This document shows positions 3,300 to 64,000 of a DNA stretch of 64,000 nt, piece by piece. How positions within the stretch are numbered: position 1 is the first letter of the stretch; each line of letters starts with the position of its first letter. The notes beneath the pieces were generated by a model. It was not told the DNA's origin and searched no databases. It saw only the letters and a list, made by a program, of their open reading frames with translations. Source of the stretch: Minisyncoccota bacterium (lineage in GTDB: Bacteria > Patescibacteriota > Minisyncoccia > Phycocordibacterales > WO2-35-19). The stretch lies in contig DATDXE010000014.1 in NCBI GenBank assembly GCA_036517255.1, positions 9,994 to 73,993 of the forward strand. Reading direction: 5' to 3'. The translations under genes and the position numbers were made by a program.

Positions 3300-4583
3300 A
3301 TGAACCAAGAATCAAGAAAAATAATCGCCAATTTTTTACTTTTTTCTGTGATTGGTATATCACTTTCACCTCTTTTTACAAGAAAAGCAGAGGCTCAGTG
3401 GGTAGTATACGATCCAGCAAATTTTGCTGTCAATGCCATGACAGCGGCAAACACTACGGCCAACACATGGGGTAAAGAGTTTGGTCTAGACACCATCGCC
3501 TTCATTATCATCAACATGATAATCGAAAGAGTAGCTGCTTCCACAGTCAACTGGATAAACAGCGGCTTCCAAGGAAGCCCCGCTTTCGTTACCAACCCTG
3601 AAGCCTATTTCAAAAAAATAGGGGATCAGGTGGCAGGACAACTGATTTTTAACCACCCCGATACCCGTTTTATGTGTGCTCCGTTCAAAGCTCGGGTACA
3701 AATTGCTCTTTCCCAGGCTTACCTCAACCCATTTGGCAATTTCCAATGTTCTCTTTCGAGAGTAGTGAGAAATTTTGATAATTTTATGAATGATTTTTCC
3801 GATGGAGGATGGGAGGGATTCATCGAATTAACACAGAATAGCCAAAACAATCCTCTTGGAAGTTTTAATCAACGAATGAATCAGATCAATCTTTCAGTAG
3901 GAAACAGCCTAGGCCAAGCCAACAAAGAACTTGACTGGGGGAAAGGATTTTTGTCGTTTAGAAAACCTTGTACTAAACTGAACGAGTTTGAAAGCAGAGA
4001 GTTTTTGACTGATGAGCAGTATGACGCACTACCATGTTTGGACAGCCCACCGATCGAAACACCGGGGAGTGTAGTCGAAAGCCAACTCAATCAAACCCTT
4101 CAGATTGGTAATAGTAGGCTACAGGTGGCAGATGAAATAAATGAAATAATAAGCGCTCTTTTGAACCAACTTGTGGGCAAGGCTTTGGGAGGATTACTTT
4201 CACTCGGCAAACCTGACCCCTCAAATGCAAATAGCCAAAGTTATCTAGAACAACTGCAAACAGCGACAGAAAACAACGATGCCGACCCTTATTACAATAC
4301 GAGTAACAACAATAGGATAAGAGATCTAAGCACAAATATAGAAAACCAGACAACGAACCTTGGAAATTCACTCGACTCAGCAGAAGATATCGGAAATTCT
4401 GTTTTCGGAGGAAATTATGTTCCCCCACCTGACACAAGCGGTTTCGGCGCAGGAACTGGTGAGACCGGGGGAAATGGAGGGTCGGGTAACACTGTCACTC
4501 TGCCTGACGGCACGGTAGTAAATTGTGCTAGCCCACAAACAGAGCCTGGTCTTGCGGCCTGCATAAGCGCAGGAAAGATATAA
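3300..4583 (+). CDS. hypothetical secreted protein, first gene of T4SS-like cluster
   Basis: Signal peptide-like N-terminus (LLFSVIGISLSPLFTRKAEAQ), Gly/Asn-rich C-terminus, translationally coupled to downstream VirB6-like gene. Confidence 0.45.
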   Translation: MNQESRKIIANFLLFSVIGISLSPLFTRKAEAQWVVYDPANFAVNAMTAANTTANTWGKEFGLDTIAFIIINMIIERVAASTVNWINSGFQGSPAFVTNPEAYFKKIGDQVAGQLIFNHPDTRFMCAPFKARVQIALSQAYLNPFGNFQCSLSRVVRNFDNFMNDFSDGGWEGFIELTQNSQNNPLGSFNQRMNQINLSVGNSLGQANKELDWGKGFLSFRKPCTKLNEFESREFLTDEQYDALPCLDSPPIETPGSVVESQLNQTLQIGNSRLQVADEINEIISALLNQLVGKALGGLLSLGKPDPSNANSQSYLEQLQTATENNDADPYYNTSNNNRIRDLSTNIENQTTNLGNSLDSAEDIGNSVFGGNYVPPPDTSGFGAGTGETGGNGGSGNTVTLPDGTVVNCASPQTEPGLAACISAGKI

Positions 4584-4586
4584 AAG

Positions 4587-6848
4587 ATGTCAAAAAAACT
4601 GATTACAATTTTGTTCCTGACACTAACACTAGGAGTATCTTTTTCTCCAATGTTTTCGAATAATGTTACTGCACAACTTACTGAAGAACAGCAGGCAATT
4701 CTGGAAAGGGCTGGAAGATCAGAAAGAGGGCAGCTAACTCAGGAAGAGTCAGCAGATCTAGAAAGTTTGTCGGCCAGAGGTAATTCTAGCTGCGATCTAT
4801 TACTTAATTTTAATGCCTGCGTAAAACAATTTTTAAGTGGATTAGCAGAGCTCCTGCTTACAATCGGAGCTTTGATACTTGCACTAGCTGGAAATATTTT
4901 TAATCTCGTCTTGAGCTTTACCATAGTAGAGTTTGCGGGCCAGATAAATAACGCAGAGGGACTAGGCGGAGCTATAAATAGCGCCTGGAGCACACTAAGA
5001 GACATCGGAAATATTATTTTCATTTTCGTACTCCTCTGGGCAGGCATACAAACTATCCTTGATATTGGTGGGGATTTGAAAAAAACAATAGTAAACATAA
5101 TACTTATCGGCCTTATAGTAAACTTCAGCCTTTTCATTACCAAAGTAGTAATAGATACCTCCAATATTGCGGCAGTCGGATTTTATAATTCGATCATGAA
5201 TAGCGGAGAGGCTGGAAGAACAGTACCGACAATAACATTGGCCGGAATAGATTTTGAAACAAGAGATTTTGCTGGAGTTTTTCTTCGTTTTACCGGAGTT
5301 CAGAGTTTTTTTAAAGCAGATATTCTAACTGGGGCAAATGATGACATATGGGGGAAAAAACCTTTCGTCACCGGCATACTGGGCATGATAACCATGATAG
5401 TCATGGCTATAGTTCTTTTTGTCGCAGCCATTATGTTCCTGGCAAGATTTATCATACTTCTATTCCTGATGATTTTGTCCCCTGTGGCTTTTATTGCTTT
5501 CATATTGCCAGCAATGAGAGGCAAGTTTAAAGAATGGTGGGACACACTAATAAGCCAGGCGTTTTTTGCACCATATTTTATGATCCTGATTTGGGTAGCA
5601 TTCAAAGTAATGGCTGGAGCAAGTGGAGCAATAGGAACACGAGAACAGAGCTTTGCTGGTATAGCCAATTCACCTTTTAGTGCCATCGGCCTTGTGTTCA
5701 ATTTTGCTTTAGTCATGGGCCTCACCATCATGGCCCTGGTCCTCTCCAAACAACTAGCCGGCAAAACCAAAGGCTTTGGAGCTGTTGCGGGATTTGTGGG
5801 TGGAGCCACTATCGGTGTCGCAGGCATGGCCGCAAGACAAACTGTGGGTAGGGGATCAAGAATGTTGTTAGACAGTAAATACAAAGACAGATTAGCAAAA
5901 ACATCATACGGAAGAGGTGCGTTGTGGATTGCGAATAAAGGACAAAAATCAAGTTTCGATGTAAGAGGAATTTCTGACTCTAAACTAGGGAAGGCAACTG
6001 GAGCTAAAAACTTACTCGGTGGGATAGGAGATATGAGTGGTAAAGATGGCTACAAAAAAGCTGTGGAGGATAATGCAAAAGCAAAAGCTCAATATGCTAA
6101 AGATGTTTATGGTTCCACAGCACAAGAAGAAAAAGCTCATAAAGACGCAAAAGAAAAAACTAAAGAAACAAAAGAAACTTCGGCAGAATCATACAAGAAT
6201 GCTAAAGGTAAAGAAAAGAGCGAGGCTCAAAATAGTGTGAACGAAGCAGAAAACAATAAGAAAAAAATAGAAATACTAGTAAAAGAAAAGAGAGAAGCTC
6301 ATGAAAAATTAGGAGTTGTAGCTGGTAGCCCTGCCGAAATAGCGGCAAAGAAAGAACTGGACGAAGCAAATGTAAAACTTGCCGAAGCTGAAACAAAACG
6401 AGCGGAAGAAATGGAAAAGAAAACTAAAATAGACGAAGGTAATTATTCTGACGCGACAAAGGAACTCGGAAAAGTAGCAGAAGAAGCTGAAAAAGCATGG
6501 AAAAATCTCAAGTCAGCAGGGGAAGCAAGAATGCGAGAATTTGCCGATAGAGTAGAAAAGAAAAACAAAATAATGGGTAGAGCCGCTATGGGAGGAATAA
6601 TAGGAGGAGTAGCGGCCGGACCACTTGGAGCTGCAATAGGAGCTGCCCTTGGAGGAGTGGTGGGAGCTGCAATCAAACAAGGGGTACGAGGCAACATAGA
6701 GGCGGCAAGAGCAATTAGAAAGGCGGCGGGAGGTAAAACAGAAGAAGAAGAGGCGGCAGAGATTTTGAAAAAATTGGATAAGAAAAAGAAAGAGGCAGAA
6801 GGAAAAAGTGATGAAGATAAAGGTGAGGCAAAACCTAAAGAAAGTTAA
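4587..6848 (+). CDS. VirB6/TrbL-like polytopic membrane protein with long Lys/Glu-rich coiled-coil and glycine-zipper C-terminus
   Basis: Signal peptide plus at least 6 predicted TM helices in first 400 aa, charged KEKE repeats, GGIIGGVAAGPLGAAIGAALGGVVGAAI glycine zipper; position in cluster with VirB4. Confidence 0.45.
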   Translation: MSKKLITILFLTLTLGVSFSPMFSNNVTAQLTEEQQAILERAGRSERGQLTQEESADLESLSARGNSSCDLLLNFNACVKQFLSGLAELLLTIGALILALAGNIFNLVLSFTIVEFAGQINNAEGLGGAINSAWSTLRDIGNIIFIFVLLWAGIQTILDIGGDLKKTIVNIILIGLIVNFSLFITKVVIDTSNIAAVGFYNSIMNSGEAGRTVPTITLAGIDFETRDFAGVFLRFTGVQSFFKADILTGANDDIWGKKPFVTGILGMITMIVMAIVLFVAAIMFLARFIILLFLMILSPVAFIAFILPAMRGKFKEWWDTLISQAFFAPYFMILIWVAFKVMAGASGAIGTREQSFAGIANSPFSAIGLVFNFALVMGLTIMALVLSKQLAGKTKGFGAVAGFVGGATIGVAGMAARQTVGRGSRMLLDSKYKDRLAKTSYGRGALWIANKGQKSSFDVRGISDSKLGKATGAKNLLGGIGDMSGKDGYKKAVEDNAKAKAQYAKDVYGSTAQEEKAHKDAKEKTKETKETSAESYKNAKGKEKSEAQNSVNEAENNKKKIEILVKEKREAHEKLGVVAGSPAEIAAKKELDEANVKLAEAETKRAEEMEKKTKIDEGNYSDATKELGKVAEEAEKAWKNLKSAGEARMREFADRVEKKNKIMGRAAMGGIIGGVAAGPLGAAIGAALGGVVGAAIKQGVRGNIEAARAIRKAAGGKTEEEEAAEILKKLDKKKKEAEGKSDEDKGEAKPKES

Positions 6849-32062: not shown

Positions 32063-32135
32063 CCGCCCGTAGCTCAGTCGGTAGAGCAGCTCCCTTTTAA
32101 GGAGAGGGTCGCAGGTTCGATTCCTGCCGGGCGGA
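32063..32135 (+). tRNA. tRNA-Lys (anticodon TTT), no encoded CCA
   Basis: Manual cloverleaf: acceptor ccgcccg/cgggcgg, anticodon loop cttttaa, T-loop ttcgatt. Confidence 0.85.
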
Positions 32136-32138
32136 CAA

Positions 32139-33183: not shown

Positions 33184-33861
33184 ATGACCGAACAACAGAC
33201 ACCGAAACTAATGGGGGTTCTCGTCGAGCACCAAGACGCATTCTCCCCGCTACCGATCGAAGACGCCCAATGGGTGATTCGGAATCCCAAAGAAGCAATC
33301 TCACTCTTCTTGATTGCGGTGAAAAACCGAGTACGAGAAGCGGCGACTACGATCAAAAACATTCTCTCTCCAGTCAAAAAGATCACCATCGCGGCGACGG
33401 CGGAGAAGAGGACGGAGGAGTGTTTCGCGGACAGCAAGAAGTACTACCGCGACCCCAGCGTTCTCTCGTTGCTTCCGGAATTTCAGCCAGCACGGGGGGT
33501 CGAGCAAGGGCAAGTGAGTCAGCTCAACGAGAGATCCAAGTTTTTGGGGATGGTGCAGAGTCTCCTCGGTGTAATGGAAGACGGTATCGCCGTTCTCTCA
33601 CGGCTCATCATTGAGTCTTTCCACATCTATACCTTGACCCAAATCGAGCAGCTCGTCGAGCGGCAAGAGGCAGGTGAGGATGTAGGCCTTCTCACGAACG
33701 GCTGGGGCAACTTCTTTCTGGTGCTGAATCGGGAAGGTAGCGTCTCGGTCGTCGATGTCATTCGGGCTGGCAGTCAGTGGCTCTTCTTCGCTTACGTCCT
33801 CGGCTTCGTCCGCGTCTGGTCTGTCGGGCGCCGCTTCTTCTCTCGCAACAAGACCCTGTGA
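33184..33861 (+). CDS. DGR target protein 1 (variable protein; VR at C-terminus), GC-rich
   Basis: 3' 111 nt match downstream TR 34116-34226 except at TR adenines; last 37 codons hypervariable-type Asn-derived positions. Confidence 0.8.
   Translation: MTEQQTPKLMGVLVEHQDAFSPLPIEDAQWVIRNPKEAISLFLIAVKNRVREAATTIKNILSPVKKITIAATAEKRTEECFADSKKYYRDPSVLSLLPEFQPARGVEQGQVSQLNERSKFLGMVQSLLGVMEDGIAVLSRLIIESFHIYTLTQIEQLVERQEAGEDVGLLTNGWGNFFLVLNREGSVSVVDVIRAGSQWLFFAYVLGFVRVWSVGRRFFSRNKTL
33739..33849 (+). repeat. DGR variable repeat VR1
   Basis: 111 nt aligned to TR1 with about 20 mismatches, every mismatch at a TR adenine (TR AAT/AAC codons). Confidence 0.9.
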
Positions 33862-33895
33862 TCCTTTGAATCTTTTTGGACACTTGGTCTTACTT

Positions 33896-33921
33896 CCCCA
33901 GTCTGTTTCGGCAGGCTGGGG
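33896..33921 (+). promoter_or_regulatory. GC hairpin 47 nt downstream of VR1 (ccccagtctg-tttcgg-caggctgggg), candidate DGR homing hairpin/cruciform
   Basis: 10-bp stem with one G-T position, located just 3' of VR/IMH as in characterised DGRs. Confidence 0.45.
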
Positions 33922-34115
33922 ATTTCATTTATAATAAATAAGAATACGCTGGCATCTTTGGGTTATTCTAAAGGTGGCGATTCAAAGCCAACAATTTTTG
34001 TCGGCTTCAAAAAATAAATAGTTGGTGCACTCCTTCAAGAAGTTAAAAACTTCAAAGGCGAAATCAACTCAGAGAGAATTCAATGAGTGGTGACTATAGA
34101 AGGTGGGGTGTACAA

Positions 34116-34226
34116 AGCGTCTCGGTCGTCAATGTCAATCGGAATGACAGTCAGTGGAACTTCTACGCTTACGACCTCGGCAACGACAACGTCTGGAATG
34201 TCGAGAACCGCTTCTTCTCTCGAAAC
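34116..34226 (+). repeat. DGR template repeat TR1 (adenine-rich, noncoding)
   Basis: Invariant partner of VR1; contains AAC/AAT at all variable positions. Confidence 0.9.
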
Positions 34227-34597
34227 TATCTGTTTTCCCCAAAGGAATTAACTCCTGAGGGGTTTTTCTTTTCTAAATATTCTTTCCAACCAGAGAGCAT
34301 TTTGCCTGCATCTACCAGTACTGGAGAAATTCTTACATATTTTTTGTCTACAAGTATTTTACATTCCCACATGAGGAGAAGGAAAAACTTGGCCAAATCA
34401 TTTTTTATCATAGCCTCTGATACCAGTTCAATTTTTCGAATTCCTTTGCTGTAGGCGGCTCTAAAAGTAAGATCGAGAGTTTCTAAAAGAAGTCTGTCTA
34501 TTTTTACCCCTATCGTTTGCCTGTGGCTTTTAGAAATGTGAGGAAGTATCTCCTGCCAGACCTTATACCCAAGTTTTAAACACTCTAGCACTGGCAA
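34226..34597 (-). CDS. avd: Avd-like accessory variability determinant (four-helix-bundle protein), TTG start, stop overlaps TR1 end
   Basis: 123 aa, basic helical protein with Avd/23S-IVS four-helix-bundle pattern (YKVWQ..., LLLMWECKIL); between TR and RT. Confidence 0.6.
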   Translation of the reverse strand: MPVLECLKLGYKVWQEILPHISKSHRQTIGVKIDRLLLETLDLTFRAAYSKGIRKIELVSEAMIKNDLAKFFLLLMWECKILVDKKYVRISPVLVDAGKMLSGWKEYLEKKNPSGVNSFGENR

Positions 34598-34605
34598 AGA
34601 GCTGC

Positions 34606-34613
34606 GGGGGGGG
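34606..34613. repeat. G8 homopolymer tract between avd1 start and RT1 start
   Basis: gctgcggggggggtagc in otherwise AT-rich spacer; paralogous G10 tract at same position in second cassette. Confidence 0.8.
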
Positions 34614-34626
34614 TAGCATTTGAGGA

Positions 34627-35640
34627 ATGAAAATTCAGCTTGCTCACAGTTATGATGATATCATTTCAATCAAAAATTTACTCGAAGCTTGGGAAGAATT
34701 TATACCGGGGAAAAGAAATAAAGAAGATGTGGCTAAGTTTGCTCTCGACTTGATGGATAATATTGTTTCCCTGCATAAGGATTTGGAGAGCAAAAAATAT
34801 AGACATGGTGCCTATACTGCTTTCAATATATCTGATCCAAAACCTAGGAATATTCACAAAGCTAATGTGAGAGATAGGCTATTGCATCGCGCTTTGTACA
34901 GAATCCTTTACCCTCATTTTGACAAAACTTTTTATTCAGAATCATATTCGTGCCGAGTAAATAAAGGTACTCACAAAGCGATGAATAAGTTTAGGAAATT
35001 TGCCAAGAAAGAATCTTTGAATCACTCAAAAACTCTATGGATATTAAAATGTGATATAAGAAAATTTTTTGCTTCCATTGACCACAATATTTTGTGTAAA
35101 ATTGTCGAAAAATACATACCCGATCAAAATATAAACTGGCTACTTACTGAAATTATTGAGAGTTTCCATTCTACTCAAAGAGGTTTCGGCTTACCTTTGG
35201 GTAATGTAACTTCACAGGTATTGGTGAATATTTATATGAATGAATTTGATACTTGGGTAAAACATGTAATGAAAATAAAATATTATATTAGGTATGCGGA
35301 TGATTTTCTGATTTTAAATAAAGATAAAGATTATTTACTCGAGCTTATTCCAAAAATTGCAGATTTTCTGGAAGAAAATTTAAAACTTTCTCTACATCCC
35401 CAAAAGGTTTCTATTCAAACTTTTGCCTCAGGGACTGACTTTCTAGGTTGGGTAAATTTTGTTGATCACAAAGTGTTGCGCACAAGTACAAAAAGAAGAT
35501 TACTCAAAGCTTTATCACAGAGTGAAAATATAAATGTCTTACAATCTTACAGTAGCCTTTTGAAACATGGGAATCAATTTAGGCTTAAAAGTAAGATAAA
35601 TGAAAAAATTGAGATTTTAAGAGGGGGAGTTAATAATTAA
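34627..35640 (+). CDS. DGR reverse transcriptase 1
   Basis: RT motifs: NISDPKPRNIHKANVRDRLLH, IRKFFASIDH, GLPLGNVTSQVLVNIYMNEFD, IRYADDFLIL (YADD catalytic motif); adjacent TR/VR. Confidence 0.85.
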   Translation: MKIQLAHSYDDIISIKNLLEAWEEFIPGKRNKEDVAKFALDLMDNIVSLHKDLESKKYRHGAYTAFNISDPKPRNIHKANVRDRLLHRALYRILYPHFDKTFYSESYSCRVNKGTHKAMNKFRKFAKKESLNHSKTLWILKCDIRKFFASIDHNILCKIVEKYIPDQNINWLLTEIIESFHSTQRGFGLPLGNVTSQVLVNIYMNEFDTWVKHVMKIKYYIRYADDFLILNKDKDYLLELIPKIADFLEENLKLSLHPQKVSIQTFASGTDFLGWVNFVDHKVLRTSTKRRLLKALSQSENINVLQSYSSLLKHGNQFRLKSKINEKIEILRGGVNN

Positions 35641-52620: not shown

Positions 52621-53361
52621 GTGTTTTTAACGAAAGATGAGGGCGACTATATGTCGATTGCATCTACTGTAAAAGAAGGTCAGATCGATGAGATCTGCCG
52701 GACTGCCGACGCATTTACGAAATCCGTGGTGCGTACTGCTCTCGAAGAATTGATTGCCGAAGGCGAACTCGAAACTGAGGGAGCTCAGCGGGTAATCTCA
52801 AATGGTGATCGTCTGAGAGCCAAAATGATCCCCGCCTACAAGGTGGCGATTGCGGAACTCTCAACGAAAAGAACGAGCTGTCTTGCACTCATTTCGAGTG
52901 GCAAGAAGGTCGTCATCAAGGCTACGACTGGCAAGAAATTGATCAGTGGGGCTAAGGACACGTTCCCTGGTTGGATCGATGCCGACTTTACAAATTACGG
53001 CTGCGATGTTCTCGGAGAGGCGAAGCCGGAAACGCCAGTCGAAGTCTTCGAGATGACAGCTGCCGCTGATTTCTCGGGCATATTTGGGAGTTTCGATGTT
53101 GAGCTCGATGATCTCGCCTTCGACCAAGAGCAGGTGATCGAGTTTGCCCGCGAAAATACAGACTGGCTTCATCCGGAAGGCTACGCCACCTTGCTTCTTT
53201 TCAAAGTTGGAAAAGGTGGGAAAAAGAAGTTCTTCGTGGCGCGTGTCTGCCGGAGTGCCGGCCGTCTCGAGGCCTATGCCCACCACTTTTCGATCGACTA
53301 TGTCTGGGATGCCGAGCACCGGTATCGTGTGGTTGTCCCGCAACTGAAACTCAAATCTTAG
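52621..53361 (+). CDS. DGR target protein 2 (VR at C-terminus), moderately GC-rich
   Basis: 3' 117 nt match TR 53665-53781 except at TR adenines. Confidence 0.8.
   Translation: MFLTKDEGDYMSIASTVKEGQIDEICRTADAFTKSVVRTALEELIAEGELETEGAQRVISNGDRLRAKMIPAYKVAIAELSTKRTSCLALISSGKKVVIKATTGKKLISGAKDTFPGWIDADFTNYGCDVLGEAKPETPVEVFEMTAAADFSGIFGSFDVELDDLAFDQEQVIEFARENTDWLHPEGYATLLLFKVGKGGKKKFFVARVCRSAGRLEAYAHHFSIDYVWDAEHRYRVVVPQLKLKS
53230..53346 (+). repeat. DGR variable repeat VR2
   Basis: 117 nt aligned to TR2 with about 17 mismatches, all at TR adenines. Confidence 0.9.
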
Positions 53362-53664
53362 GGCTCGACCCTTTGATTCTCAATCCCTTGGACCCTCTAT
53401 CAACTTTGGTTGGTATGGCCCAAGGGATTTTTGTTATACTAATATTCCAATATATGGATGCATCGCGGTCATGACTTCGATGCCATGATTGGGTGAAAAT
53501 ATTATTTGAGAATTTTGTTGGCTACGGCTTATAGAAGAGTAGATATATTTTTACAAACAAAAAATATTTAGTTGGTGTAGTAAACTGGAGGACTTTTATG
53601 TCCCAAATAATATAGCTTTTTGTCGTGATTCGGCAGATTGCTTTTTGGATGGTTTACTGCACAT

Positions 53665-53781
53665 TTCTTCGTGGCGAATGTCTACCGGAATGCCGGCAAT
53701 CTCAAGGCCAATGCCAACCACTTTTCGAACGACAATGTCTGGAATGCCGAGAACCGGAATCGTGTGGTTGTCCCGAAACTA
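53665..53781 (+). repeat. DGR template repeat TR2
   Basis: Adenine-rich invariant partner of VR2; shares gacaa(c/t)gtctggaatg(t/c)cgagaacc core with TR1. Confidence 0.9.
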
Positions 53782-53804
53782 GTTATTTCTTCCCGAGAAA
53801 TTTA

Positions 53805-54149
53805 TTACTTCGCGGGGAGTTTTGTTTCCAAGCCTTTCTTCCATCCTCCGAGCATTCGACCTATCTCTTCAAGTTTCACTGACAGTTCAGAATGTTTTTC
53901 TGTCGGTATGAGTTTATTCTCCCAAGCTAGTTGCACGAAGAATTTTACTGCATCGAGTTTTGAGATCGTCTTCCTAAGTGCTATAATTTTCTCTACTGTT
54001 GGCAGATAAGCTGAATTTAGAGTGTATTCCAGGAGAGATAAGAGACTCTGGTCTAATCTATAACCGATTCCGAACCTTTCGACCCTAGGGAAGTTCCTTA
54101 AAATATTGAGCCAGAGAGAATAAACCTCTTTTTCTTTTATAATTACCAC
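53805..54149 (-). CDS. avd: Avd-like accessory variability determinant 2 (GTG start)
   Basis: 114 aa helical protein with same pattern and position as avd1. Confidence 0.6.
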   Translation of the reverse strand: MVIIKEKEVYSLWLNILRNFPRVERFGIGYRLDQSLLSLLEYTLNSAYLPTVEKIIALRKTISKLDAVKFFVQLAWENKLIPTEKHSELSVKLEEIGRMLGGWKKGLETKLPAK

Positions 54150-54161
54150 GGGCGGTCGTGC

Positions 54162-54171
54162 GGGGGGGGGG
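54162..54171. repeat. G10 homopolymer tract between avd2 start and RT2 start
   Basis: cggggggggggc directly read from sequence. Confidence 0.85.
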
Positions 54172-54204
54172 CATTATTGTCATATTTTTTGTGTTCTAAT
54201 TTTT

Positions 54205-55203
54205 ATGAAAAATAAAATAATCATCTCTTATCTAGATATTATATCAGTTCAAAATCTTTACGAAGCATGGGAAGAATTTCTGCCCGGAAAAAAGAAGAAA
54301 GAAGATGTGGCAGAATTTGCATTAAATTTGTCTAGTAATATTTTAAAATTGCATTCCGATCTAGTTAATAGAAATTATACCCATGGAGCTTACAAAGCTT
54401 TTAACATTTCTGACCCAAAACCTCGTAATATTCATAAAGCCTCTGTTCGCGATCGGCTCTTGCACCATGCTATTTATAAAATCCTGTACCCATACTTCGA
54501 TAGGCTTTTTATTTTTGACTCATATTCCTGTCGTGTGGCTAAAGGAACACACAAAGCCATAGAAAGATTTAAAAAATTTGGAAACCAAGTCTCCAAGAGC
54601 AATACCAAAACTTGTTGGGTTTTGAAGTGTGACATACGAAAATTTTTTGCAAGTATAAATCATAAGATTTTGCTAGACATTTTAAAAAAATATATAAAAG
54701 ACCGAGAAATCATTTGGCTTCTAGAAAGAATTATATTAAGTTTCTTTTCAACAAAGGTTGGGGTCGGTTTACCTCTGGGCAATCTTACGTCTCAACTTTT
54801 GGTGAATATTTATATGAATGAATTTGATCAATATATAAAACATATATTAAAAATTCGACATTATATACGTTATGCCGATGATTTTGTTTTTCTTGATACT
54901 GATAAGGATCGGCTTTTGGAACTTATTCCTAGGACAGCTGATTTTCTAGACGAGCACCTCAAACTACAAATTCATCCTGACAAACTGTTTATCCGAACTC
55001 TTGCTTCTGGCTTGGATTTTCTCGGCTGGGTACATTTTCCGAAATATCGAGTATTGCGGACCGTAACAAAAAGGAGAATGTTCAAAAGAATAAAAGAAGT
55101 AGAGTGGAATAAAGAGACGGTAGGTTCTTATCTTGGGATGCTAAGATGGGGGGATAATTACAATCTGGAGCAGATTATAGAAGATGAAAAATCGTTGCAC
55201 TGA
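54205..55203 (+). CDS. DGR reverse transcriptase 2 (paralog of RT1)
   Basis: Same RT motifs incl. IRYADDFVFL; roughly 65% identical to RT1 by eye. Confidence 0.85.
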   Translation: MKNKIIISYLDIISVQNLYEAWEEFLPGKKKKEDVAEFALNLSSNILKLHSDLVNRNYTHGAYKAFNISDPKPRNIHKASVRDRLLHHAIYKILYPYFDRLFIFDSYSCRVAKGTHKAIERFKKFGNQVSKSNTKTCWVLKCDIRKFFASINHKILLDILKKYIKDREIIWLLERIILSFFSTKVGVGLPLGNLTSQLLVNIYMNEFDQYIKHILKIRHYIRYADDFVFLDTDKDRLLELIPRTADFLDEHLKLQIHPDKLFIRTLASGLDFLGWVHFPKYRVLRTVTKRRMFKRIKEVEWNKETVGSYLGMLRWGDNYNLEQIIEDEKSLH

Positions 55204-62728: not shown

Positions 62729-64000
62729 ATGCTCAAGTTTGAATCGCTTTATTACGGCGATCGGCTGCTGCCGATCGTTAATGAAACTGGAGACGTGGCT
62801 ATATGCACTCTCTGGTCCAAAACTGAATCGGCGCGAAAGATTTTAGGAGAAGCTGGGGTTGATCTCGACCCCGCTACTTCTCGCATCTCTGTCATCGCCA
62901 ATCTCTACGGCAACGGCTTGCCCCAGATGCTGCGCAACCTGCTTCACAACCCGCAGATTCGTTACATCGTGATAGTCGGCAAAAATTTGTCCGGCTCACT
63001 CGAGTGGCTCGTCAACTTTTTCGAGCAAGGTCTCGAGGAAGTGGAATTCCTGGGAGCCAAGGCTTCCAGAATTCGCGGTACCAATCGCGTGATCGATGGA
63101 GAAGTAACTCCCGACATGTTTGTCCAGGAACCGCAGTTTTCTGTTTTTGGAGATGTCGGTGATCCGGCGACGAAAGAGTCTCTCCAGACTTTTTTCGGGG
63201 AACTGCCGGAACAAAAAGAATGTGTCCTGCCCCGTATCGAACCTCCGGAAATCCCGGAGCCTCAAGTCACACGCTATCCCTCCAATCCTCGAGGGCACAC
63301 GATCGTTCGCGCCACTCCGATGGAAGCTTACGCCGAGCTCATCTTCCGCCTCTACCGCTTTGGTCATCGCAACATGGTCGCGAAGAAGACGGGCCTCGAA
63401 GGGCGCGTCGAACTTCAGAATGTGAAGGTGGTGATCGAAGAGGCACGTGAAGAATCCGACGAGGTTCTGCGTGGTTACGGTTTCCTGCTGGAAAAGTTTA
63501 AAGCTTACCAGTGTCGCATTCTCGATCCGGGGAAGCCATATGACCTGGGCTACACCTACGGCAACCGCCTCCGCCAGCACTTTGGTAGCGATTCGCTCGA
63601 AATCGTGGCCAAGCGCCTGCGCGAAAAACCCGACTCGCGCCACGCTTACTTCACGCTTTGGGATAACACCCGCGACCTTATAGAAGGTACGGACACGCCC
63701 TGCTTCGTCACGGCTTTCTTTCGCCGTTTCGAAGGTCGCCTCACTCTCACCGCCACCTTTCGCTCACACAATGCCATGGAAGCCTGGCCGGAGAATGTCT
63801 ACGGTCTGATTGCTATCCAGAGATTTGTCGCGAACCTTGCAAATATGGAGCCTGGCGCGATCACCGTCGTCAGCCACTCCATCTCGATCGATCTGCCTTC
63901 TCTTGAGAAGGCCAAGCGCATCGCGACGTCGAAGGAATCGGACGAAGTGTACGACCCAGCGACCGGCAAGCACGGTCCTCGCATGGATCCTCATGGTGAG
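62729..64000 (+). CDS. thymidylate-synthase-family (ThyA fold) protein with about 210 aa unknown N-terminal extension, GC-rich, 3' end outside window
   Basis: Manual translation open to window end: KPDSRHAYFTLWDNTRDL, DTPCFVTAFF (PCH-type nucleophile Cys), TFRSHNAMEAWPENVYGL (RSxD-type) align with ThyA core; not in ORF track because no stop in window. Confidence 0.6.
   Translation, partial: MLKFESLYYGDRLLPIVNETGDVAICTLWSKTESARKILGEAGVDLDPATSRISVIANLYGNGLPQMLRNLLHNPQIRYIVIVGKNLSGSLEWLVNFFEQGLEEVEFLGAKASRIRGTNRVIDGEVTPDMFVQEPQFSVFGDVGDPATKESLQTFFGELPEQKECVLPRIEPPEIPEPQVTRYPSNPRGHTIVRATPMEAYAELIFRLYRFGHRNMVAKKTGLEGRVELQNVKVVIEEAREESDEVLRGYGFLLEKFKAYQCRILDPGKPYDLGYTYGNRLRQHFGSDSLEIVAKRLREKPDSRHAYFTLWDNTRDLIEGTDTPCFVTAFFRRFEGRLTLTATFRSHNAMEAWPENVYGLIAIQRFVANLANMEPGAITVVSHSISIDLPSLEKAKRIATSKESDEVYDPATGKHGPRMDPHGE

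Follow-up and report, generated by a model that had tools for sequence, protein, structure and literature searches.

Evidence for a complete chromosomal diversity-generating retroelement of the Patescibacteria type, with candidate cis-elements and a recurrent simple-sequence tract between avd and the reverse transcriptase gene

Introduction

The prototype diversity-generating retroelement (DGR), that of Bordetella phage BPP-1, comprises the target gene mtd with its variable repeat (VR), avd (accessory variability determinant), a template repeat (TR) and the reverse transcriptase (RT) gene brt, and is characterised by an adenine-specific transfer of sequence from TR to VR. In the present work, we analyzed a 64-kb stretch of contig DATDXE010000014.1 (64,000 nucleotides (nt), hereafter the window), in which the cassette at positions 33184-35640, referred to as DGR-1, is very probably a complete chromosomal DGR of the Patescibacteria type, with architecture B3, in a Candidatus Paceibacterota genome.

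The first survey of DGRs in Candidate Phyla Radiation (CPR) bacteria is reportedly that of Paul et al. 2017. In the architecture that Wu et al. 2018 (PMC5758913) termed B3, avd is encoded on the reverse strand within the order TR-(avd)-RT, and this architecture accounted for 90% of the CPR DGRs in their set; most CPR VRs were left as 'unknown VR' in that study because their fold could not be decided, and a GC-rich inverted repeat was found downstream of the VR in 34% of DGRs. Patescibacteria DGRs were placed in cellular clade 2 by Roux et al. 2021 (PMC8144416), who found that clade-2 targets usually lack transmembrane (TM) segments and recognisable domains, noted that their true non-membrane status 'remains to be established', and expected new C-type lectin (C-Lec) variants among CPR targets.

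DGR-1 is an ordinary member of this well-described CPR B3 type. It shares with CPR/Patescibacteria DGRs (B3, clade 2) the host group, gene order and orientation, chromosomal location, a small target with a C-terminal VR and no TM segment or recognisable domain, and the occurrence of several cassettes per small genome; nothing essential sets it apart. Its antisense avd is published as CPR-typical and is therefore no oddity. With the BPP-1 element, DGR-1 has in common the adenine-specific TR-to-VR transfer, a Brt-homologous RT (IGxxxSQ-type motif, YxDD), Avd, a VR situated at the target's 3' end, an undiversified end resembling the initiation of mutagenic homing (IMH) site, and a downstream GC hairpin with a 4-nt loop. 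However, the BPP-1 element is phage-borne and DGR-1 cellular; avd of DGR-1, encoded on the opposite strand, is placed between TR and RT, and TR thus cannot be co-transcribed with an upstream avd; the hairpin starts 45 nt after the VR rather than immediately after the IMH; and the target is no tail-fibre protein and has no detectable sequence relation to Mtd.

The simple-sequence tract between avd and RT, the TR leader, the hairpin after TR, the motifs flanking the VR and the GC offset reported below had no description in the searchable literature, which did not cover Paul et al. 2017.

Results and Discussion

The VR/TR repeat pair is adenine-specific

The initial annotation of the window had described a VR at the 3' end of the coding sequence 33184-33861 and a TR identical to it except at about 20 sites, with adenine in TR at every one of them, and had read this as the signature of adenine-specific mutagenic homing. 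In a gap-free alignment of the two repeats over 111 nt, at an offset of 377 nt, we found exactly 20 mismatches, and their tabulation gave adenine as the TR base in all 20 (A>T 8, A>G 6, A>C 6). Twenty of the 28 TR adenines are substituted in the VR, and none of the 83 non-A positions differs. With adenine making up 25% of the repeat (28/111), the probability that 20 of 20 mismatches would fall on A by chance is ~1e-12. The TR/VR pair is adenine-specific, as had been claimed.

With regard to the target reading frame, 19 of the 20 changes lie at codon positions 1-2. The annotation had further placed the substitutions at these positions of AAC/AAT codons; this stood for the 14 changes found in such codons (AAY, Y being C or T) but not for the other six, five of which affect position 2 of GAC, TAC or GAG, the last being a synonymous third-position change (CGA>CGC). 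At the protein level, the VR peptide differs from the TR-encoded peptide at 13 amino-acid positions. Read in the target frame, TR contains 19 A-containing codons, nine of them AAY, none of which can be mutated to a stop; 18 are able to recode, including the nine AAY codons, and the theoretical repertoire computed from TR amounts to ~1e16 peptides.

The DGR-1 pair is the second-longest repeat in the window, the longest being the analogous pair of a second cassette, DGR-2. When both strands of the window were scanned with the two templates (TR1 and TR2) and adenines were ignored, one VR was detected per TR, with no remote additional VRs beyond the known pairs. A hidden Markov model (HMM) of the target family, run on the window, recovered the two targets and two TR pseudo-open reading frames, and nothing more.

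The IMH-like segment at the 3' end of the VR is undiversified apart from the single substitution given in Table 1; its terminal AAC is unchanged, and the flanks of VR and TR diverge beyond it. The residue encoded by this final AAC, N222, is kept across the target family, which suggests that it marks the 3' limit of mutagenesis.

The reverse transcriptase and Avd complete the cassette

An RT with a YADD motif had been annotated downstream of the repeats. The motif is present, and in an HMM search the protein (RT1) scored 89 bits against Pfam RVT_1, above the cut-off of 29.6. Its motif 4, LGNVTSQ, corresponds to the [ILV]GxxxSQ signature. The closest PDB relative is 8ub7_A (E 5e-37), whose sequence identifies it as Brt, the prototype DGR RT, from Bordetella phage BPP-1; the next PDB relatives, RTs of group II introns and retrons, were found at E 1.6e-17 or weaker, ~20 orders below the Brt match. 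RT1 also matched the PHROG RT family with E 9e-102. Judged from these motifs and matches, RT1 is a DGR-type reverse transcriptase closest to Brt. At least 548 related RTs were retrieved from metagenomes by peptide patterns and confirmed by tblastn, the best 80 being 58-72% identical to RT1.

The Avd-like gene annotated on the minus strand matched Pfam bAvd (27.6 bits; cut-off 40) and NCBIfam DivGenRetAVD NF033474 (32 bits) over its full length, both below threshold, as well as the PHROG family 'Avd protein of DGR' (E 6e-10). Further, its product (Avd1) is 37% identical (E 1e-21) to Avd2 of DGR-2, which passes the Pfam bAvd model at 60.9 bits. These matches bear out the annotation and, on the homology they reveal, the open reading frame (ORF) encodes an Avd homologue.

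The elements follow one another as target/VR, TR, avd (reverse strand) and RT, and the same order was found in DGR-2 and in the related loci L013, L014, L022 and L024. Among 46 related metagenomic loci, retained for having enough upstream sequence, reverse-strand avd lies directly upstream of RT in 46, and an upstream VR>TR pair with A-biased mismatches was detected in 44. Hence, each component of the annotated cassette (target with VR, TR, antisense Avd and RT) passed an independent test. The features of both cassettes are collected in Table 1.

Table 1. Features of DGR-1 and DGR-2 in window coordinates
Feature	Positions	Strand	Remarks
Target (variable-protein) gene	33184..33861	+	225 aa; N-terminal helices and alpha/beta domain ~58-225; GC 55%
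VR	33739..33849	+	Codons 186-222 of the 225-codon target; 20/20 mismatches at TR adenines
IMH-like 3' end of VR	33831..33849	+	Common to TR save one A>C; putative function
VR-only flank	33850..33894	+	GACCCTG / CCTTTGA / CACTTGG-type motifs; after VR, not after TR; putative role
GC-rich hairpin and T-rich tail	33895..33932	+	12-bp stem and 4-nt loop TTTC at 33895-33922
TR leader	33935..34115	+	Conserved, non-coding; presumed 5' part of TR RNA
TR	34116..34226	+	Non-coding donor; 28 adenines
avd	34226..34597	-	121-123 aa; convergent with TR, divergent from RT
Post-TR hairpin CCCC..GGGG and T-run	34238-34263; 34264-34275	+	12 nt past TR, inside the 3' end of antisense avd
G8 homopolymer	34606..34613	.	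In the 29-nt avd/RT divergent spacer; putative function
DGR reverse transcriptase (RT1)	34627..35640	+	337 aa; RVT_1; LGNVTSQ and YADD
DGR-2	52621-55203		Complete cassette, same B3 layout, ~20 kb from DGR-1
DGR-2 target	52621-53361		Different subfamily of the same target protein family
DGR-2 VR; TR	53230-53345; 53665-53780		15/15 mismatches at TR adenines
DGR-2 avd	53805-54149	-	Passes Pfam bAvd
DGR-2 G10 tract	54162-54171		In avd/RT spacer
DGR-2 RT (RT2)	54205-55203		61% identical to RT1

Candidate cis-elements and a proposed mechanism

Conserved non-coding elements were analyzed in 49 non-redundant cassettes. Between the VR and the downstream hairpin lies an array of CCCTTGG / GACCCT / CTTTGA-type motifs; CCCTTG, CCTTGG or GACCCT occur after the VR in 18-23 of the cassettes, where ~0.5 would be expected (p ~1e-30), and the k-mers of this flank are outside the ten most enriched after TR. 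The hairpin of DGR-1 was not matched in any of 200 shuffles (z = -4.4). Across cassettes, the hairpin located 10-80 nt after the VR had a mean of -21.3 kcal/mol compared to -10.2 in controls; it is present in 45/49, with a 4-nt loop in 23 and a T-rich tail in 40/49. In DGR-1 it may act as target-gene terminator, as DGR cruciform element, or as both.

Upstream of TR, the 'spacer' spans 250-580 nt across cassettes and contains conserved boxes. In DGR-1, ACGCTGGCATCTTTGGG occupies 33946-33962, and positions 34009-34027 hold an A-rich box together with AGTTGGTG, the latter at 34020-34027. The TACTTGGTG box (TACTTGG/GTGGTG) was found in 34/49 cassettes, and the p values of the leader motifs are below 1e-20.

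A second hairpin begins 0-17 nt (usually 5-15) after TR and is followed by a T-run in 41/49 cassettes. RNAalifold returned no structure for this element on account of gaps from differing loop lengths, and the named structure was then tested for covariation. All nine stem pairs showed compensatory changes, with 56 double-change cells vs. 26 +/- 5 in shuffled alignments (0/500), and the register of the stem outscored every slid register. From this we infer a terminator-like 3' element of the TR RNA.

The 3' flank specific to the VR and the leader box at 34009-34027 share the motif ACTTGG(T) in the same orientation. It is a matter of speculation whether the leader RNA pairs with the bottom strand beside the VR.

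The following scheme would account for these elements. A plus-strand non-coding RNA of ~340 nt (~33935 to ~34275) would contain the leader, the 111-nt TR and the covarying hairpin with its U-run; it would be self-contained, ending at its own terminator-like hairpin and converging with avd, while RT and avd would be transcribed divergently from the 29-nt spacer. RT and Avd would reverse-transcribe TR, misincorporating opposite template adenines, and the mutagenised cDNA would take the place of the VR at the target's 3' end, the 3' boundary being set by the IMH-like end. The donor would be told apart from the recipient by the VR-only flank and the GC hairpin, a role played in BPP-1 by IMH and the cruciform (PMC5758913). 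Only TR-adenine codons would change, so that a surface of 37 residues, made up of a beta-hairpin and a loop, could take up to ~1e16 forms; it would be carried by a divergent alpha/beta domain that may be C-type-lectin-like and presumably binds a ligand. The RNA ends, the roles of the cis-elements, the current activity of DGR-1, the fold class and the ligand are what we infer here. The conserved elements themselves offer a concrete minimal 'DGR RNA' and recipient site for the antisense-avd type of DGR.

A simple-sequence tract separates avd and RT

In host-adapted bacteria such as Neisseria and Haemophilus, contingency loci can have a poly-G/C or TA repeat in the promoter or in the 5' part of the coding region. 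In the window, the only G/C runs of at least 7 nt are G8 of DGR-1 and G10 of DGR-2, both located within avd/RT spacers. A run of G8-G12 (mode 10) occupies this spacer in 58 of 72 cassettes, and (GT)n or (CT)n stands at the same site in three further ones (L030, L100 and L099), which brings the total to 61/72. Tract length also differs between near-identical strains: G9 in L026 vs. G10 in L027/L028 is the sole difference across avd, spacer and RT, that is, over ~1.4 kb.

On the avd strand, the tract encodes proline codons. No in-frame ATG, GTG or TTG lies between the tract and the first helix of Avd in 23/51 non-redundant cassettes; a start codon abutting the tract is in frame in four cassettes and in the +1 frame in three, and the nearest open upstream avd starts are biased to the +1 frame (32 vs. 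15 and 14), counts that are subject to homopolymer assembly errors, to an Avd model built from two sequences and to the non-independence of related cassettes.

The evidence, though indirect, has the marks of a contingency locus or of a programmed slippage or frameshift site. It raises the possibility, which we advance tentatively and hold to be somewhat short of probable, that selection maintains the tract as a slippage-prone contingency switch by which the hypermutation machine itself is switched on and off or adjusted. It could act via the reading frame of an avd start beyond the C-run or via the spacing of divergent promoters. A role as promoter spacer is weak in DGR-1: the candidate CTGGCA-N17-TAGCAT matches 8/12 positions and was missed by the promoter scan, and the leader would be nearly nil. 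Further, no compensation between tract length and the fixed part of the spacer was seen in ten examples checked by eye, and promoter spacing is kept only as an alternative.

The likeness to contingency loci lies in an 8-12-nt homopolymer or dinucleotide repeat located between two diverging genes or at the 5' terminus of either, and in a length that varies between relatives and, once, between near-identical strains. The difference is that here the tract would control a mutagenesis machine and not a surface antigen. The near-universal presence of the tract suggests that DGR activity may be phase-variable, which would bear on how DGR mutagenesis is regulated; if this is true, CPR bacteria would place a targeted mutator under stochastic phase variation.

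Is DGR-1 active?

Variation among relatives follows the TR adenines. In the T1-like subfamily of targets, VR columns in which the TR codon has A at position 1-2 showed an entropy of 2.39 bits vs. 0.75 in the other columns (p = 1.5e-5). Near-identical alleles differ chiefly in the VR; P0003 and P0004, for instance, share 96% identity outside it and 46% within it. In three pairs of sister-cassette strains (98-99% identical, from different samples), VR differences fell on TR adenines in 5/5, 17/17 and 17/17 cases. TR, avd and RT are without any difference in L041/L042 and in L058/L061; L026/L027 have unchanged avd and RT and six TR differences. In this last pair, the VR scaffold, TR, avd and RT are 98-100% identical, and neither the N-terminal two-thirds of the target nor any of the upstream sequence is related between the two strains. 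The pattern resembles a recombination breakpoint within the target, ~100 nt upstream of the VR (L027 ~2002), with modular exchange of the non-variable part.

Three observations count against reading DGR-1 as a complete and working element. Firstly, at least 16 public contigs from at least seven samples carry DGR-1 with 99.8-100% identity, VR included, and provide no direct evidence of activity. Secondly, the avd start is ambiguous relative to the C-run, the upstream ATG being out of frame at G8, so that Avd1 expression might, from the sequence, be low or off. Finally, Avd1 taken alone stays under the thresholds of the curated Pfam and NCBIfam models.

The alternative to which these points are most relevant is that DGR-1 is real but silent now, as a fixed remnant or in a phase-OFF state, and that its VR is a frozen record. 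The identical VRs in all public contigs of the population, in DGR-2 likewise, fit this alternative, as does the frame of the ATG upstream of the C-run; besides, L021 and the P0028 contig keep a target without TR-avd-RT, so cassettes can be lost while targets persist. Yet the RT and avd ORFs are intact, TR and VR differ at no non-A position, all cis-elements are conserved, and, downstream of the tract, avd offers TTG and GTG starts. The few differences among the public DGR-1/DGR-2 contigs are confined to contig ends or to sequence outside VR and TR; these contigs represent one clonal population and are consensus sequences, and the absence of variation in them is therefore uninformative with regard to activity. 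On balance, we regard a silent copy as rather unlikely, though well worth considering, and retain the reading of DGR-1 as a complete DGR.

Several independent public assemblies break in or beside VR, TR or avd: L005 starts at 33798, L006 starts at 34241, L011 ends at 34242 and L107 starts at 54073. Such breaks could reflect repeat confusion or read-level heterogeneity of the VR.

DGR-1 occupies a stable chromosomal site

A protein identical to the DGR-1 target is recorded in NCBI from a Candidatus Paceibacterota metagenome-assembled genome, and the related genome loci, of which a narrow target alignment gave four, come from Paceibacterota, Adlerbacteria and the 'Patescibacteria group'. DGR-1 is flanked upstream by polA, an ECF-type sigma factor (sigma70), DoxX and a SpoU methylase, and downstream by a membrane-anchored ORF, fpg, a Mur ligase and ruvA. 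The same neighbours surround L022, which has a 41%-identical target and the same cassette, with 19/19 mismatches at adenines. In L021 (target at 4001-4690), the syntenic target is kept without TR-avd-RT and the downstream ORF follows directly; in the P0028 contig, the syntenic target is kept and a helix-turn-helix/Gp49 (HigA/HigB-like) pair stands in place of TR-avd-RT. Since L022 has the cassette and L021 and P0028 lack it, the retroelement core comes and goes at a fixed site. The DGR-1 site is thus chromosomal and vertically inherited, its retroelement core being gained and lost while the target stays.

This setting bears on whether DGR-1 could instead belong to a phage or prophage and switch tropism by diversifying a tail fibre (receptor-binding) protein, as the BPP-1 element does. 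Many DGRs are viral (PMC8144416), RT1 matches the PHROG RT family, and Avd families were matched in PHROG as well. However, the flanks are housekeeping genes whose synteny is kept in relatives with or without the cassette; neither target nor the downstream ORF has a PHROG match; the 225-aa target is unlike tail fibres; and CPR clade-2 DGRs are reported as cellular. A phage origin is thus very improbable. Even less credible is a non-DGR retroelement (group II intron, retron or defence RT) beside a chance or duplicated repeat: RT1 has sub-threshold matches to group II intron, Drt and retron models, but these are far under the cut-offs and ~20 orders weaker than the match to Brt, no intron or retron RNA reached the Rfam threshold in the window, and the 20/20 adenine-specific changes, the presence of Avd and the recurrence of the arrangement in 44/46 related loci all stand against it.

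The second complete cassette, DGR-2 (Table 1), means that two documented CPR-type DGRs lie within 20 kb.

The target belongs to a large Patescibacteria family

The target had no match in Pfam, NCBIfam, PADLOC or PHROGs. A word-indexed search yielded homologues in 110 clusters, and an exhaustive profile search at least 2,346 representative clusters at E<=1e-3, 820 of them at <=1e-10. Nearly all members are 170-260 aa long, with a conserved core at about residues 58-224, and every member with a taxon name comes from Patescibacteria.

In line with the initial annotation, which had noted the lack of a signal peptide, hydropathy analysis revealed neither a signal-peptide-like nor a TM-like segment in the target (maximal 19-residue Kyte-Doolittle mean 1.48; 0.38 near the N-terminus). 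This matches the findings of Roux et al. 2021 on CPR clade-2 targets (PMC8144416). A family of thousands of clusters with neither a Pfam domain nor a signal peptide bears on whether CPR DGR targets are truly non-membrane.

An AlphaFold (AF2) model built from 112 sequences (predicted local distance difference test, pLDDT, 93; predicted template modelling score, pTM, 0.80) consists of N-terminal helices followed by an alpha/beta domain. In this model, the VR accounts for strands 187-195, 198-205 and 217-221 together with the intervening loop, and the variable residues occupy alternate strand positions (191/193/195; 200/202/204-205) and loop 208-216, a pattern consistent with one exposed face.

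C-type-lectin-fold DGR variable proteins of solved structure include Mtd, TvpA (PDB 2y3c), archaeal AvpA and TaqVP. The model only weakly resembles C-type lectin (CLec) and formylglycine-generating enzyme (FGE) folds, including TvpA. A Foldseek search of the model against the PDB gave no match, the target-family profile found nothing below E 0.05 among PDB sequences, and searches of Pfam and NCBIfam did not place the target in the CLec, FGE-sulfatase or DUF1566 sequence families. The predicted structure somewhat favours a very divergent, minimal CLec-like scaffold, membership in the CLec class being unproven. Such a grey-zone resemblance bears on whether all VR scaffolds are CLec folds.

Two further observations concern the family. 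P0126, a protein of 926 aa, has five separate matches to the target-family profile and looks, by sequence, like a tandem array of the target domain. Members in L015, L016 (1-Mb contig) and L018/L019 (~450-kb contigs) have no RT, avd or TR within 4-5 kb; such RT-less members may be diversified in trans, may have been targets in the past, or may never undergo diversification.

Targets and RTs deviate in GC content in opposite directions

The GC content of the target had been annotated as far above average. It amounts to 55% compared to 41% for the window, and GC at third codon positions (GC3) is 0.69 vs. 0.41 +/- 0.09 for the 36 long ORFs of the window, which upholds the annotation. RT1 has a GC of 0.32 and a GC3 of 0.28.

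Across 11 target-family loci, targets exceed neighbouring genes by 9.6 GC points and 18.5 GC3 points. Target GC correlates with host GC (r = 0.71); A and T at third positions are both depleted and C is the most enriched. The offset is present too in members without an RT within 5 kb. For the RT clade, the comparison was made with the non-VR part of 43 VR-containing targets: this part exceeds the flanks by 9.8 GC points (36/38 loci) and its own RT by 14.5 (42/42), and RTs lie 4 GC points under the flanks (34/39). The GC offset is a real pattern across this RT clade.

Adenine avoidance was rejected as the cause of the high target GC, as A makes up 26% of the non-VR part and T, like A, is depleted at third positions. 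Wu et al. 2018 (PMC5758913) discussed whole-cassette GC deviation alone, as evidence of transfer. Recent transfer from one GC-rich donor is unlikely here, since target GC tracks that of the host and the RTs deviate in the opposite direction. The offset may reflect a DNA-level process or constraint tied to being a DGR recipient. Like the cis-elements and the tract, it is testable, and all three may bear on the control of DGR activity.

Other features of the window

Rfam detected seven tRNAs above threshold in the window and no intron, retron or DGR RNA family. The tRNA at 32063-32136 (+) was called by ARAGORN as 'tRNA-Stop, anticodon tta'. A manual D-arm register gives the loop CTTTTAA of a tRNA-Lys(UUU), and the call is probably a one-base register artefact rather than a suppressor. 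Finally, the ORF at 62729-64000 (+), which runs off the end of the window, is the third GC3-rich ORF (0.63); it is thymidylate-synthase-like (PF00303, 38.8 bits) and unrelated to the DGRs.

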